44,417 nucleotides of DNA from Escherichia phage jat. The stretch lies in sequence record NC_073076.1, one strand, 5' to 3'. The position numbers and the translations under genes are program-made. Positions 14,354 through 19,597 of the stretch are shown piece after piece (the first letter of the stretch is position 1; every line of letters starts with the position of its first letter). Under the pieces are notes generated by a model, which ran no database searches, was not told where the DNA came from, and was given only the letters and a program-made list of their open reading frames with translations.

Positions 14354-14542
14354 ATGGCTATATTCTTTGTTTTATTTCGTTGCCGTATTACCGGCGACGA
14401 GCAACCCGAAATCGTTATGAATCAAAACTGGAATTGCTGCTGGATGCAAGCTCGAGGACTGGCGGCTACCATGAACAATGCCGCGAAGCGGGCCAATGTT
14501 GAACACGATTATTACATTGCTCAATTTTCAAGGGTGGAATAA
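14354..14542 (+). CDS. hypothetical protein
   Basis: 62 aa; start abuts previous stop. Confidence 0.3.
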   Translation: MAIFFVLFRCRITGDEQPEIVMNQNWNCCWMQARGLAATMNNAAKRANVEHDYYIAQFSRVE

Positions 14543-15972
14543 TGGCGATTAAACCGAAGCGCAAAACACAATCCGGTAGTAATACGGAACATTCATTACT
14601 TGGGCCATCTGGATCTAAAAAATGGATGGGGTGCCCTGCCGCCCTGGTGGTCGAAAAAGATATCCCGAACGAATCCGGGCAAGCTGCGATTAACGGTACG
14701 AGTATGCACACTGTATCAGAGGTCGTGCTAAACCGCATCATTGCCGGGGAAAAGCTGATAACCGCAAAAACGTACAAAGGGTGCTACGTCGAGAATGAAG
14801 GCAAGGGGCCAGTAAAGGCGCACCCGAAAGCGCCGAAAGGCGGCGTACTGGTCAACGACGACATGGTGAAACAGTGCGACGCGTACATCGACCACTGGCG
14901 ACCGCTCCTCGAAGTGGCGGAGTTTGTTCAGCTTGAGATGCGCGCCGATCTCACCCGCGTCCTACACTCTGGCTTCGAGATCGACGGCAACCGGGTTAAG
15001 ACGTTCGGCACTGCGGATATGGTCATGGTCATGAAGAAGACCGACGGCACGTACATGCTGATTGTTGGCGACCTGAAGACGGGGCGGCATAAGGTCGAGG
15101 CGAAAGAAAACAAACAGCTTATGTTGTATGCGCTGGGCCTGCTGCGCAAGCTGAAAACTATGTACGACATTACGACCGTGCGCCTGGTTATCTTCCAGCC
15201 GTATTGCGGCGGGGCGTCGGAGTGGGATATTTCGGTAGAAGCCCTGGAGATATTCGCTAAGTTTGCGTCAAAGCGTGCTATCGCCGCCCTGGAAGCGTAC
15301 GCCCGCGGCAAAAAGGGACTCACCCGTGCCGACTTCCGACCGAGCGTTGATGCGTGTCAGTGGTGCAGATTTGCGGATCAGTGTAGCGCCCGCGCTAAGG
15401 CTGCAATCGACACGATGACCCCACCAACGGCAACAGACGAAGACCTGGGCGACGACGTAAGTATTGCGACAGAGGAAGAATGCGCCAATCACGACCGCAA
15501 TATGGCCCGCGAAGCCCGCAAAGCGGCACGACGTGCGAAGCGTGGCAAGAAAGAAGCGGCCCCAGGCGCTATGAGCGCTGCGGAACTGCGCAAGGCTTAT
15601 GAAGGCCTGGACGCAATGCGCCAGCACATCAAAGCTATCGAGTCCGCGGTATTCAAAGCGGTAATGGCGGGCGATGGCGAATCGCTGGGCCTCAAGATGG
15701 TTGCCGGTAAGGAAGGGATCCGTAAGTGGGCGGACGAGAGCGAAGTTATTGAAATCTTCACGAAGGCCCGGATCAAGCGCGATGTGATGTACAAAGAAAC
15801 ATTGCTCAGCCCTACGGATGCCGAGAAGGTACTGAAGGACGAAAAACCGAAAGTGTGGGCGAAGCTGTGTGATAAAATCACGCGCGCACCAGCCAAACCG
15901 GTGTTAGCACCAATCGACGACCCGCGCCCTGCGTGGTCGGAAGCTACTGACGAGGACTTAAGCAATGAATAA
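14542..15972 (+). CDS. PD-(D/E)XK nuclease with C-terminal Cys cluster (DUF2800 / Cas4-RecB-like)
   Basis: 476 aa; D...D-x-K core in FGTADMV...VGDLKTGRHK...QLMLYALGL and CQWCRFADQC cluster; sits beside the SSB-like and PolA genes. Confidence 0.6.
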   Translation: MAIKPKRKTQSGSNTEHSLLGPSGSKKWMGCPAALVVEKDIPNESGQAAINGTSMHTVSEVVLNRIIAGEKLITAKTYKGCYVENEGKGPVKAHPKAPKGGVLVNDDMVKQCDAYIDHWRPLLEVAEFVQLEMRADLTRVLHSGFEIDGNRVKTFGTADMVMVMKKTDGTYMLIVGDLKTGRHKVEAKENKQLMLYALGLLRKLKTMYDITTVRLVIFQPYCGGASEWDISVEALEIFAKFASKRAIAALEAYARGKKGLTRADFRPSVDACQWCRFADQCSARAKAAIDTMTPPTATDEDLGDDVSIATEEECANHDRNMAREARKAARRAKRGKKEAAPGAMSAAELRKAYEGLDAMRQHIKAIESAVFKAVMAGDGESLGLKMVAGKEGIRKWADESEVIEIFTKARIKRDVMYKETLLSPTDAEKVLKDEKPKVWAKLCDKITRAPAKPVLAPIDDPRPAWSEATDEDLSNE

Positions 15973-16207
15973 AGTATTCGCAATATTATTGATGTTTGTT
16001 ATCGGCGCGCTGGGCTTTATCCTGCATTGTGTGCATGGCGTGTTAATGGTGGCGTGGATGATTCGGCATCCGACCCGCTGGCTGGATGACGGTTATAGCG
16101 AAGCTGCCGCCGATTGGGTGGCGAAGAATATCGACCGCCCGCCATTAAGCTGGATCGAGAACGCTACCGACTACGTTACCAGAAATCTTTTTAATGAAAA
16201 TGCTTGA
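15965..16207 (+). CDS. small membrane protein, hypothetical
   Basis: 80 aa; N-terminal hydrophobic helix FAILLMFVIGALGFILHCVHGVLMVAWMI. Confidence 0.4.
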   Translation: MNKVFAILLMFVIGALGFILHCVHGVLMVAWMIRHPTRWLDDGYSEAAADWVAKNIDRPPLSWIENATDYVTRNLFNENA

Positions 16208-16297
16208 CCGCTTAGGCGCAACCAAGTAAATTGGCAACCAAGCCGAACGGGGTGGCTTCCAATAACCCCGATACATGTGAAAATGAGGAATTGGAAA

Positions 16298-17080
16298 ATG
16301 GCTAAAGTCAACCTGAAAAATGTGCGCGTATGCTTCCTGAAAATTTGGGAACGTGATACCCCTAAACAGGATGGACAAAAACCGGCATACCGTGCCGTGA
16401 TTCTTCTGGATAAAGAAGATCCGCAGGTGGACAAAGTGGAAGCGGCAGCGCGCGCAGTGCTCACCGACAAGCTGAAATCCGAGAAGAATGCCGATAAGTG
16501 GATGGACCGCCACTACGCCCAGGATTCTAAGGAATGCGCAGTTCGCGACGGCGACGAGCGCGATGAAGTAACCGAAGAATTCGAAGGCATGTTGTATATC
16601 AACGCCAAATCGTTCAAACAACCAATCATTCAAACGTCACTCGGCGAGAAGCAGACTGAACAAGGTCTGACCATCGACGGCGACGAGATTGAAGGCCAGG
16701 AGATCTACTCTGGTTGTTATTGCAACGTGTCCCTTGATATTTGGGCGTGGAACAACACCAACGGCAAGGGACTCGGTGCTGGCTTGCTGGGTTTACGCTT
16801 CCGTGATGACGGTGAAGCCTTCGGCGGTGGCGGGTCTTCTTGCTCCGATGAAGACCTGGACAACGACGACGAAGACGAAGCACCGCGCAAGGCTAAGAAG
16901 TCAAAACGTCGTGATGACGATGATGAAGATGACAAGCCGCGCAAGTCCAAGAAATCCAAGCGCCGCGATGACGACGACGATGAGGAAGATGAAAAACCTC
17001 GCAAACGTCGTAAGCCACGCGATGACGAAGATGAGGACGACGACGAAGACGAAGCACCACGCAAACGTCGCCGCCGTTAA
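16298..17080 (+). CDS. single-stranded DNA-binding protein-like (T7 gp2.5 / DUF2815-like) with repetitive charged C-terminal tail
   Basis: ATG 16298 with GAGGA SD (track uses GTG 16277); block IYSGCYCNVSLDIWAWNNTNGKGLGAGLLGLRFRDDGEAFGGGG resembles gp2.5-type SSB core; three repeats of acidic run + PRK(S/A)KKSKRR. Confidence 0.5.
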   Translation: MAKVNLKNVRVCFLKIWERDTPKQDGQKPAYRAVILLDKEDPQVDKVEAAARAVLTDKLKSEKNADKWMDRHYAQDSKECAVRDGDERDEVTEEFEGMLYINAKSFKQPIIQTSLGEKQTEQGLTIDGDEIEGQEIYSGCYCNVSLDIWAWNNTNGKGLGAGLLGLRFRDDGEAFGGGGSSCSDEDLDNDDEDEAPRKAKKSKRRDDDDEDDKPRKSKKSKRRDDDDDEEDEKPRKRRKPRDDEDEDDDEDEAPRKRRRR

Positions 17081-17097
17081 GGGCAAAGCCCACTATT

Positions 17098-17124
17098 CAA
17101 GCCCGCTTAATGCGGGCTTTTTAA
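17098..17124 (+). terminator. rho-independent terminator
   Basis: agcccgc/gcgggct stem with ttaat loop followed by T5. Confidence 0.6.
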
Positions 17125-17138
17125 TAGGACAATGAAAA

Positions 17139-17309
17139 ATGCGTATTAAAGCCAGCGAAGTAAAAGTCGGGATGAAAGTATGGTCCAAGCTACTGGGGGA
17201 ATATTTCACAGTTGCCGAGATTCGCAACAACGGCGAAGAAATCGCCCTGTCCGACGGCATCTTCTCCATGATCGGCAGCGCTGACGCCGTAGTGAGGATA
17301 AAGCAATGA
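17139..17309 (+). CDS. small hypothetical protein (56 aa)
   Basis: MRIKASEVKVGMKVWSKLLGEYFTVAEIRNNGEEIALSDGIFSMIGSADAVVRIKQ; stop overlaps PolA start (ATGA). Confidence 0.4.
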   Translation: MRIKASEVKVGMKVWSKLLGEYFTVAEIRNNGEEIALSDGIFSMIGSADAVVRIKQ

Positions 17310-19597
17310 AAGACTTCGAACGTCTGTTTCTCGACACCGAGACATTTAGCGGGGTGGACCTGAAGAAAGTGGGGGCGTACGCCTACGCAGAGCACCCAAC
17401 CACCGAGATTATGATTTGCACCTACGCCATCGACGAGGGCCGCGTGCAGACATGGGATTGCACTGAATCCCCCACAATGCCGCGTGAACTGCGCAAGGCG
17501 CTCCGCCATGTTTCCCGCAAGAAAGCAAAAATAGTGATGGCTAACGGCCTCCTGTTTGACCGCCTGGTTATCCGTGAGAAGTGGGGCATCGACCTGCCGG
17601 TAAGCCAGATCGAAGACACCATGATTATGGCATTTCGCCACGCGCTGCCCGGTAGCCTCGATATGCAGTGCCAGGTGCTGGGCGTTGACGCAGAGCACGC
17701 GAAGGATAAGGCAGGCAAGGCGCTGATTAAACGATTCTGTAAGCCCACCCCTAAGACCTACAAAATCCGCCGCTACACACGCGAGACGCACCCCGAAGAA
17801 TGGGCCAAATTCTTGCGCTATGCCGCGCTGGATATTGTTGCCATGCGTGAAGTCTACTGGCGCATACCGGACTGGGGCAACTCACCGAAGGAAGATGAAA
17901 TCCTGCTCATCGACCAGTTGATTAACGACCGCGGCTTCTACGTTGACGTTGACCTGGCGAACGCCGCGATCAAAGCGGTGCAGGCGCATAAGGAAGAATT
18001 GAAGGAAGAAGCCTGGGAGCGGTTTGGCGGTAAGCTGACCGGCAATGACTTCCTGCCAATCCTGCGTGATATTGCGCCAGCATTCACGATACACAACGCG
18101 CAGAAATCCACACTTAACGACCTGCTTGAAGACCCGGACTTCCCCGACGAAGGCAAAGCGCTTATCGAAATGCGCCTCGGTGCGTCATCAACGGCATCGA
18201 CTAAGTACAATCCGCTAGTTAACGGCTTATCCGCAGATGGTCGCCGCCGTGGGTGTCTTCAGTATGGTGGCGCAAAGCGCACGCTGCGCTGGGCTGGTAA
18301 AGGCTTCCAGCCTCAAAACCTGGCACGCGGCGAGTATAGCGACGATCACGAAGGGAAGATTAAGCGCCGCGAAGGCGAGAGCGACGTTGCTTTTTGGGTC
18401 CGGTCGCACATGCTCACCAACGGCATCAATTCCCTGTTACGCGGGACCGCGCACTGGGCGTATGACATATCTAAGCTAACAGCCTCGACCGTTCGCGGGT
18501 GCATTATCCCGGCTAAGGGCAAGAAGTTTGTCGTAGCGGACTACTCTAACGTGGAAGGGCGTGGCCTCGCCTGGATCGCTGGTGAGAAAACCGCGCTAAT
18601 GGTGTTTAGGGCCGGTCGCGATATTTATTGTGAAACTGCCGGTAAGATGTTCGGCCTTGACCCGGAATACATTAAAGCCAACCGCAAAGACCTACGCCAG
18701 ATTGGTAAGGCGTGTGAGTTGGGACTTGGCTATGGCGGCGGCGTGGCTGCGTTCTTGCAGTTCGCTAAAAACCTGGGCCTCGACCTTTACGCGATGGCGG
18801 ACGTCATGAAGGGCACATTCCCCGATCACATTTGGGCAGCGGCTAAACGGGGTTATGAGTACGCCCGCATTAACGAAGCGAAGCGACCGCCGAAGCCGGG
18901 CAAGAAGGACGAGCGCCCGACTTACATACTGACTAAAAACGTTTGGCTGACCTGCGACGCGATCAAACGCATGTGGCGTGAGGCCCACCCGAAGACGGTA
19001 GCCTTTTGGGCCGAGCTTGAGGACGCGGTGTTGTGTGCAATCCGCAATCCTGGCAAAGCGTACTGGGCTGGCGCGAGCGTTCGCCCGGATGGTAAGAAAG
19101 CGCTCAAGATAGTCCGCACGAAGGCGAAGCATGACCCAACCTTCGACGAGGAACGCGACGACCCGAACGCCGCGGGGTGGTGGTTGAAAATTGAGTTGCC
19201 GTCGGGGCGTATTATGAGTTATCCGGGCATTGCGCTGTCTGTCACTACCGAGATCGACGAAGATACTGGCAAGAAACGCACCAGCACCCGCATTAAATAT
19301 CAGGGCGAGAATCAGACGACCCGCCAGTGGGGCTTCCAGTACACCTACGGCGGCAAACTCACGGAAAACATCGTACAGGCGCTGTGTCGCGATATCCTCG
19401 CATGGTCCATGCCTGGCGTTGAAGCTGCGGGATATGAGATCGTACTGTCCGTACACGATGAACTGATAACCGAAGTTCCGGATACTGACGACTACACAAC
19501 CGAGGAGTTGTGCGCGCTGATGTGCGACCTGCCTGTTTGGGCGAAAGGCTTCCCGCTTGCCGCGGAAGGCGACATTATGTACAGGTACAGGAAATAA
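17306..19597 (+). CDS. DNA polymerase, family A, with 3'-5' exonuclease domain
   Basis: 763 aa; exo motif LFLDTETFSG; motif A DYSNVEGR, motif B RQIGKACELGLGYGGG, motif C SVHDEL. Confidence 0.9.
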   Translation: MKDFERLFLDTETFSGVDLKKVGAYAYAEHPTTEIMICTYAIDEGRVQTWDCTESPTMPRELRKALRHVSRKKAKIVMANGLLFDRLVIREKWGIDLPVSQIEDTMIMAFRHALPGSLDMQCQVLGVDAEHAKDKAGKALIKRFCKPTPKTYKIRRYTRETHPEEWAKFLRYAALDIVAMREVYWRIPDWGNSPKEDEILLIDQLINDRGFYVDVDLANAAIKAVQAHKEELKEEAWERFGGKLTGNDFLPILRDIAPAFTIHNAQKSTLNDLLEDPDFPDEGKALIEMRLGASSTASTKYNPLVNGLSADGRRRGCLQYGGAKRTLRWAGKGFQPQNLARGEYSDDHEGKIKRREGESDVAFWVRSHMLTNGINSLLRGTAHWAYDISKLTASTVRGCIIPAKGKKFVVADYSNVEGRGLAWIAGEKTALMVFRAGRDIYCETAGKMFGLDPEYIKANRKDLRQIGKACELGLGYGGGVAAFLQFAKNLGLDLYAMADVMKGTFPDHIWAAAKRGYEYARINEAKRPPKPGKKDERPTYILTKNVWLTCDAIKRMWREAHPKTVAFWAELEDAVLCAIRNPGKAYWAGASVRPDGKKALKIVRTKAKHDPTFDEERDDPNAAGWWLKIELPSGRIMSYPGIALSVTTEIDEDTGKKRTSTRIKYQGENQTTRQWGFQYTYGGKLTENIVQALCRDILAWSMPGVEAAGYEIVLSVHDELITEVPDTDDYTTEELCALMCDLPVWAKGFPLAAEGDIMYRYRK

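Follow-up and report, generated by a model that had tools for sequence, protein, structure and literature searches.

A copy-number-variable tail of interleaved acidic and basic blocks on the single-stranded DNA-binding protein of Escherichia phage jat and its Dhillonvirus relatives

We analyzed a 44,417-nt stretch of DNA from Escherichia phage jat (NC_073076.1; the whole stretch is called the window below) and found that its SSB, the protein that binds single-stranded DNA (ssDNA), ends in a long tail of four charge modules, each consisting of 7-11 Asp/Glu residues, then x-Pro, then 6-9 Lys/Arg residues. The SSB gene is the open reading frame (ORF) at 16298..17080 on the plus strand (260 amino acids plus a stop codon, TAA at 17078-17080), and the tail occupies residues 184-260 (16847-17077), the last 77 residues or 231 nt before the stop. 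The protein has no acidic/hydrophobic tip and ends instead in APRKRRRR. Set beside the sequences of its relatives, the modular tail replaces the short acidic, hydrophobic-tipped tail that is usual in the family. We put at about even odds that it serves as an electrostatic tail, disordered and variable in copy number, through which DNA binding and self-association of the SSB are modulated, a mechanism that we infer by analogy with better-known SSBs and from the general behavior of polyampholytes.

The identity of the protein is well supported. Residues 3-193 match PF10991 (Enc34_ssDNA-bd, previously named DUF2815) with E = 2.8e-31 and a score of 109 bits, where the cut-off is 26. The protein also matches PHROG 112 (E = 6e-55), which is named ‘Gp2.5-like ssDNA binding and annealing protein’, and the structures 4jg2, 5odj, and 4klk are recovered with a profile built from 55 homologues (E = 1e-30 to 1e-33). 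The AlphaFold2 model, built from 55 homologues, together with Foldseek places an OB-fold ssDNA-binding domain at residues 1-175 (16298..16822, plus strand), with predicted local distance difference test (pLDDT) scores of 94-98 over residues 1-170 and a capping helix (helices 43-59 and 62-72, following strand 30-38). Foldseek matched the model to 4klk, 5odl (the Enc34 SSB with ssDNA), and 1je5 (T7 gp2.5), with E-values of 6e-13 to 5e-7 and a probability of 1.00. The sequence-only reading, made before any database search, had spoken of an SSB-like protein, which the Pfam match and the fold match to Enc34 ORF6 and T7 gp2.5 bear out. Two of three ssDNA-contact residues are kept in the alignment: W149 corresponds to Trp150 of Enc34 and N153 to Asn154, while the position of Tyr156 is taken by Asn, with an extra Trp at 151. 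An indirect hint that the protein may bind ssDNA preferentially is that the near-identical protein of SECphi4/18 activates Retron-Eco8, an ssDNA-based sensor. The family alignments also start the SSB at M-A-K-V, in agreement with the ATG at 16298.

The tail follows a Gly/Ser hinge, GGGGSSCS (residues 176-183, 16823..16846, plus strand), at which pLDDT falls to 70-64; the ‘FGGG’ junction after the OB domain is conserved family-wide. The four modules follow one another on the plus strand. Module 1 (DEDLDNDDEDE-AP-RKAKKSKRR, 22 amino acids, 16847..16912) holds the proximal acidic motif DEDL, which is kept in all relatives; a motif of the D-D-(F/L)-x-D-L type also stands after the hinge in short-tailed members of the family. 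Module 2 (DDDDEDD-KP-RKSKKSKRR, 18 amino acids, 16913..16966) is a 54-nt direct repeat with 74% identity, and module 3 (DDDDDEEDE-KP-RKRRKPR, 16967..17020) is likewise 18 amino acids long. Module 4 (DDEDEDDDEDE-AP-RKRRRR, 19 amino acids, 17021..17077) forms the basic C-terminus, and its acidic part shares 82% DNA identity with that of module 1. The 71-residue peptide on which the sequence-only reading was based is an exact match to residues 190-260 of this ORF; the reading had, however, counted three tandem repeats, each carrying PRK(S/A)KKSKRR, with a periodicity of about 42 bp. There are four modules, and the motif holds for modules 1 and 2 but not for module 3 (PRKRRKPR) or module 4 (PRKRRRR). 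The period is 18 residues, or 54 nt: the charge autocorrelation of the tail peaks at lag 18 (r = 0.67), and the self-match of its DNA at lag 54 is 0.563 over 16850-17077 (0.554 over 16847-17077), a value attained in 0.04% of codon shuffles, compared with only 0.32 at lag 42.

With 36 acidic and 28 basic residues among its 77, the tail has a charged fraction of 0.83 and a net charge per residue of -0.10, and the two signs are strongly segregated. It contains eight runs of like sign, as against 32.5 +/- 3.9 in 20,000 shuffles (minimum 17), and its kappa is 0.53, as against 0.10 +/- 0.04 in shuffled sequences (maximum 0.26). In the AlphaFold2 model pLDDT is 49-64 from about residue 175 onward, and there is no secondary structure beyond a one-turn helix at residues 184-187 in module 1; the tail is predicted to be an intrinsically disordered, blocky polyampholyte. 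Three other readings of the motif composition were dropped: a single alpha-helix of the ER/K type is ruled out by the predicted coil, by the proline in each module, and by charge blocks of 6-11 residues rather than about four; an AT-hook is ruled out by the missing GRP core; and a resemblance to a nuclear localization signal is meaningless in bacteria. In polyampholyte disordered regions, a high charge fraction, a near-neutral net charge, and a high kappa are linked to electrostatic self-association. The tail shares with eukaryotic blocky polyampholyte or KEKE-type regions its many charges, near-neutral net charge, and segregated tracts, although it has no homology to them. The sequence-only reading had suggested that the repeat may mediate different interactions or phase separation, and with four acidic and four basic stickers the tail could in principle self-coacervate, or co-condense with ssDNA, and so drive formation of a phage replication compartment. 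We consider a role as condensate driver rather unlikely, however, since variants with one module are viable, 77 residues are short for a scaffold, and our literature searches turned up no support for it.

The modules share 64-78% identity with one another as DNA, and a repeat search recovered the 54-nt spacing at 74-79% identity; Tandem Repeats Finder, run on 16200-17200, returned only codon-level periodicities of 3, 6, and 9 nt and called neither a 42-nt nor a 54-nt array, because the modules are too diverged. The array is an old, diverged repeat. A Nei-Gojobori comparison of the SSB gene of the window with those of 17 complete Dhillonvirus loci gave, across ten pairs, a ratio of nonsynonymous to synonymous substitution (dN/dS) of 0.06-0.12 for the tail and 0.02-0.07 for the OB domain, with dS ranging over 0.12-0.94 and 0.19-0.97, respectively. 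At the protein level the tail is subject to purifying selection; since its amino acids are conserved while its synonymous sites diverge like those of the OB domain, selection acts on the protein in the SSB frame, in which the tail is translated, and the DNA itself is unconstrained. These ratios also remove both objections raised by the sequence-only reading itself: that the repeats might be an assembly artifact, and that the true start or stop might leave them outside the coding sequence.

The same comparison bears on whether the protein repeat might be a by-product of an element in the DNA, such as iterons or a replication origin, a hotspot of recombination, or a second gene that overlaps in another frame or on the opposite strand. 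The 54-nt periodicity would fit such an element, as would the long ORFs in other frames and two database proteins that read into the +1 frame. Synonymous sites that diverge as fast as those of the OB domain while the amino acids stay conserved, modules that are merely 64-78% identical, and the lack of any Rfam match all speak against it, and we regard it as extremely improbable. The open frames that overlap the tail lie at 16689..17135 in the +1 frame (148 amino acids) and at 16717..17064 on the minus strand (115 amino acids, Ser-rich). Both were rejected as genes in view of the selection on the SSB frame; they stay open because runs of GAN, AAR, and CGN codons produce them, and the +1 frame meets a stop only past the terminator hairpin described below.

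The source genome is a Dhillonvirus, and a near-identical SSB gene is held by 153 phage records; that of Escherichia phage slur06 shares 99.7% identity with the window gene. As the tail is common to about 150 independently sequenced phage genomes, the repeats are genuine and not an assembly artifact. GenBank phage records allowed us to compare module number among relatives, and the suspicion that it could vary between isolates proved right: cultured Dhillonviruses range from one to four modules. Four are found in the window, slur05, SECphi18 (whose SSB gene is 95.7% identical to that of the window), rolling, YD-2008.s, and Gluttony; three in HK578, EK99P-1, Envy, BF9, GeorgBuechner, and SECphi4; two in EP23; and one in welsh, a plaque-forming isolate with an SSB of 202 amino acids and the tail GGGGSSCSDEDLDNDDEDEAPRKRRRR. 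HK578, EK99P-1, and Envy lack module 2, and BF9, EP23, and welsh lack module 3. There are at least eight distinct indel configurations, all in frame, and in every one the proximal DEDL motif and the terminal PRKRRRR are kept. The ending APRKRRRR occurs in 17 of 17 complete Dhillonvirus genes compared (for example, ...DKAPRKRRRR in EK99P-1), and SECphi4, compared as a protein sequence only, ends EKPRKRRRR, which still retains PRKRRRR; a DDDIPF-like tip is absent from the window and from all Dhillonvirus genes compared. When we took an even-step sample of 50 from the ranked Dhillonvirus matches and judged module count from gene length, 41 had the four-module length, seven the three-module length, and one each the two- and one-module lengths. 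In these isolates the middle of the tail is dispensable for plaque formation, and both ends are invariant. Collapse of repeats in short-read assemblies is possible in principle but is unlikely to explain the variants, because the modules are diverged.

The deletion in welsh joins near-identical GACGACGAAGACGAAGCACC(G/A)CGCAA stretches of modules 1 and 4. In two other records, MZ234008 (L019, vB_EcoS-22664B1, 301-1110) and MZ234014 (L020, vB_EcoS-101114B2, 301-1116), the tails are frameshifted over the equivalent of window positions 16850-17135: one shift is a 2-nt insertion after DDDLGD, and the other falls where two modules join. The annotation of each runs on in the +1 frame to a stop beyond the terminator hairpin, and the shifts are either sequencing or assembly errors or real; the metagenomic protein P0008 has a frameshift of the same kind. 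In the corrected frame each of the two records would have three modules, with module 1 duplicated perfectly over 54 nt. Between them, the welsh deletion at repeats and the 54-nt duplicate show modules being lost as well as gained as the repeats recombine.

Such exchange raises the possibility that the tail is a neutral low-complexity expansion, produced by replication slippage or unequal recombination and no better than a single acidic run. Module numbers of one to four among viable isolates, the plaque-forming welsh included, are what this would predict, as are deletions that join at repeated DNA and the perfect duplicate in two records. Set against this are a dN/dS of 0.06-0.12 in spite of dS values of up to 0.9, length variants that are all in frame with both ends kept, the predominance of the four-module length (41 of the 50 sampled genes), and the persistence of the charge-block architecture and the x-Pro grammar in relatives with an OB domain only 45-60% identical. 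We therefore give neutral expansion a low, though not a negligible, probability.

Two further records deserve a remark. The viral contig L011 (IMGVR_UViG_3300045988_003101) ends within the SSB tail and translates as ...DDAVSYTHLRAHET, which looks like sequencing-adapter read-through. An SSB gene that is 92-93% identical to the coliphage Dhillonvirus gene is carried by OQ221563.1 (Acinetobacter phage NJ01) and by a phage record labeled ‘Campylobacter’, with genomes of about 44.5 kb; either the hosts named look questionable or these phages are contaminants.

We also placed the tail among those of the wider PF10991 family. Homologues were sought first with the full-length protein, and the combined family set comprises proteins P0001-P0268; because a whole-protein search favors tails that share words with the query, the census was redone with the OB domain alone. 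That search covered 1.84 billion cluster representatives and gave 2,153 matches at E <= 1e-3, and we classified the 144 complete proteins among the best 150. A short tail without a basic block (median 24 amino acids) is present in 132 of these 144 (92%); by a rule based on the last six residues, 96 of the 132 are acid-ended, with typical ends such as ...DDLPF, ...DDDIPF, and ...EDDWLS, and 36 end otherwise. At least one basic block is found in 12 of the 144 and at least two in six. The window tail is unusual, as the sequence-only reading had it, yet not unique. Across the combined set, nine of 31 OB clusters contain charge-block tails, which reach eight modules (P0095). Within the OB cluster that holds the window SSB, 66 of 68 members have at least two basic blocks although their module sequences differ, which speaks for maintenance over the long term, and 55 of those 66 are basic-ended. 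The distant charge-block tails end in acidic/hydrophobic sequences (DDDLPF, DDEIPF, DDDDVA, and DDDDDY; for example, ...DDDDDLPF in P0076 and ...EDDEIPF in P0070), and in such tip-bearing members the repeats occupy the linker position between the OB domain and the tip. The special feature of the window clade is therefore the basic C-terminal run, together with loss of the acidic/hydrophobic tip.

The grammar of the tails is shared more widely than their wording. Proline lies within three residues of 357 of 377 acid-to-basic transitions in P0001-P0268, compared with 38 of 327 basic-to-acid transitions. The flavor of the basic blocks varies by lineage (PRRRRSR, PKRGRSRSR, PAKKKKRPV, and RGSRSRSR), and we observed that the polarity of the proline rule nonetheless stays constant, basic-to-acid transitions being direct. 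This acid/x-Pro/basic grammar is widespread in other PF10991 sublineages, a point that the sequence-only reading had missed. It also touches on a possible translational origin of the pattern. Long unbroken Asp/Glu runs reportedly destabilize translating E. coli ribosomes (intrinsic ribosome destabilization), and the basic blocks might interrupt the acidic runs and thereby allow a long acidic tail to be synthesized, as the limit of 7-11 residues on each acidic run, always followed by x-Pro-basic, would suggest. Family members with 20-30 mostly acidic residues and no basic blocks argue otherwise, and the conservation of the basic C-terminus and the length of the basic blocks are left unexplained; we hold such a workaround to be highly improbable.

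The closest known systems give the preferred reading its shape. ORF6 of the Enterobacter/Hafnia phage Enc34 (PDB 5odj/5odk/5odl) shares with the window SSB its Pfam family and fold, a charged, unstructured tail after the OB domain, and a place in a replication module with a family-A polymerase. Its tail is purely acidic and disordered, acidic residues making up 16 of the last 29; in the crystal the tail sits in the DNA-binding sheet or groove of a neighboring molecule, and without it the protein binds double-stranded DNA (dsDNA) as well as ssDNA (PMC5686142). As cited in PMC5686142, the cleft of T7 gp2.5 is contested between ssDNA and the protein's own disordered C-terminal tail, and an acidic tail with an acidic/hydrophobic tip has been termed characteristic of prokaryotic and phage SSBs (PMC5686142). 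The Enc34 tail differs from that of the window in being about 29 residues long rather than 77, in lacking basic blocks, and in ending ...WDEDEV (read from the cloning primer) rather than RRRR. T7 gp2.5 is alike in having the T7-type OB fold and its long capping helix (Foldseek match to 1je5, E = 5e-7) and in being an SSB with annealing activity, and both it and the Dhillonvirus SSB trigger Retron-Eco8; its tail, however, is purely acidic with an essential aromatic end (...DEDGDF) and has no basic blocks, repeats, or reported copy-number variation. Bacterial SSBs of the E. coli type are functional analogues in which an OB domain is likewise followed by a length-variable, low-complexity disordered segment, but their OB architecture is different (weak fold matches only, E > 0.8) and the window SSB has no DDDIPF tip; the E. 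coli linker is Gly/Gln/Pro-rich and uncharged. T4 gp32 carries a basic N-terminal Lys/Arg-Ser/Thr ‘LAST’ segment for SSB-SSB cooperativity and an acidic C-terminal domain for partner binding and autoinhibition. By analogy, it too combines basic and acidic segments in one SSB, and PRKSKKSKRR resembles LAST in composition, although the fold is unrelated and the segments lie at opposite ends rather than in interleaved repeats. We know of no charge-block disordered region described for a phage SSB, and a literature search found no paper on an acid/basic repeat architecture of phage SSB tails.

Following these precedents, the acidic blocks may mimic ssDNA and fill the basic cleft for DNA in their own SSB or in a neighboring one, as the tails of T7 gp2.5 and Enc34 ORF6 do, and the resulting competition would tune DNA binding and discrimination between ssDNA and dsDNA. 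The basic blocks and the basic C-terminus would pair with the acidic blocks of neighboring molecules and with the DNA backbone, and multivalent SSB-SSB and SSB-DNA contacts could then make coating cooperative and promote strand annealing, and possibly condensation as well. The internal modules would act as a dispensable spacer of tunable copy number that sets reach and valency, analogous to the disordered linker of bacterial SSBs, and the invariant proximal DEDL motif and terminal PRKRRRR may carry the contacts that are indispensable.

Dhillonvirus SSBs are also known from work on defense systems. The SSB of SECphi4/6/18 is the trigger of Retron-Eco8, and type III Sir2-HerA is also triggered by a Dhillonvirus SSB. 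Escape from Retron-Eco8 in SECphi4/6/18 came about through T56P in the OB domain and through changes to the SSB gene's promoter or to the intergenic stretch upstream of it, all of them outside the tail; the Retron-Eco8 study of the SECphi SSB does not display its ‘flexible C-terminal residues’. For T7 gp2.5, the C-tail is dispensable for activation of Retron-Eco8 (PMC13402713). Being sensed by two systems, Dhillonvirus SSBs are therefore under defense pressure, and loss of the tip together with an Arg-rich end might have re-targeted the SSB to PolA, the primase-helicase, or the DUF2800 nuclease, keeping host clients of the tip, or defenses that sense it, off phage ssDNA. The contrast between the basic ends of 55 of the 66 charge-block tails in the window's OB cluster and the acidic/hydrophobic tips retained in distant ones would fit such a switch of partners or counter-defense role. 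The gene order DUF2800-SSB-PolA is, however, the same for acid-tipped and basic-ended tails, the T56P escape lies in the OB domain, and the T7 tail is not needed for sensing; we judge the proposal distinctly unlikely.

Several observations weigh against the reading of the tail as a modulator of DNA binding and self-association. Because one-module isolates are viable, most of the tail is non-essential and its contribution is perhaps small; if the frameshifts in MZ234008 and MZ234014 are real, the basic terminus would be dispensable as well. The AlphaFold2 model yields no contact information for the tail, and the partner contacts proposed for the basic blocks are deduced purely from charge. In addition, since the T7 gp2.5 C-tail is not needed, the Retron-Eco8 phenotype probably does not report on the tail. 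A bolder form of the idea, which we would advance only as a speculation of low probability, is that the tail is a tunable electrostatic ‘sticker’ array for cooperative ssDNA coating, or for condensation into a replication or recombination compartment, in which the Arg-rich C-terminus would take over the partner docking of the tip.

The SSB gene lies in a replication module, as indicated by the gene order DUF2800-SSB-PolA, which is identical in two other loci (L021 and L022). Upstream is a DUF2800/PD-(D/E)XK nuclease gene (14542-15972), followed by an ORF of 80 amino acids (phrog_11211, 15965-16207) that overlaps the nuclease stop by 8 nt and has no Pfam match. This ORF is kept in every Dhillonvirus locus inspected, and its label in one record, ‘mature oligodendrocyte transmembrane protein’, plainly comes from a mistaken transfer of annotation. 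A consensus scan found a promoter-like site directly upstream of the SSB gene (TTGACC-17-TAAATT, 16204..16232, plus strand, 9 of 12 matches); the total of such sites in the region is not above chance. The site is weak evidence, consistent with the Retron-Eco8 escape mutations reported in the SSB-gene promoter of SECphi4/6/18. A Shine-Dalgarno sequence, GAGGA, can be read at 16285..16289 (plus strand), 8 nt before the ATG. On the 3′ side of the stop codon there is an intrinsic-terminator-like hairpin, AAGCCCGC-TTAAT-GCGGGCTT, followed by a T-run (17099..17123, plus strand); strand folding gives -24.8 kcal/mol (z = -4.83) for the hairpin and U-run, and a simple terminator scan did not call it, though it is strong by folding. 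Further downstream are an ORF of 56 amino acids (phrog_10102, function unknown, 17139-17309), which overlaps the start of PolA by 4 nt, and the family-A DNA polymerase PolA itself (17306-19597). Rfam and tRNA scans of the window gave no matches. Escapers of SECphi4 and SECphi18 have been reported with mutations in the 56-residue ORF and in the intergenic region upstream of it (window 17081-17138; bioRxiv 10.1101/2022.08.27.505566, Table S2). One of the changes, ATTAA to TTAAT, probably inverts the loop of the hairpin that follows the SSB gene. These escapers share a block of Table S2 with Borvo polymerase escapers, and their assignment to a system is deduced from the polymerase mutations listed alongside.

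The C-terminal tails of SSBs are hubs that recruit replication, recombination, and repair proteins, and their accepted design is an acidic tail with a hydrophobic tip. A well-populated group of coliphages, which includes the Dhillonviruses of the BASEL collection and SECphi4/18, uses another design, in which acidic and basic blocks are interleaved and the end is basic. Because near-identical, easily grown phages form a natural series of one to four modules, the effect of the number of charge blocks is directly testable, for processes that include DNA binding, cooperativity, annealing, condensation, partner recruitment, and sensing by defense systems. If the tail is merely a neutral spacer, it would still show how far an SSB tail can change freely, and annotators would be alerted to how common frameshifts and differences in length are in the SSB gene. 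If the tail does prove to be a sticker array, it would represent a second, unrecognized way in which SSB tails organize the replisome, one that would have arisen repeatedly within PF10991, in place of the docking by the tip that is found in every characterized bacterial or phage SSB.

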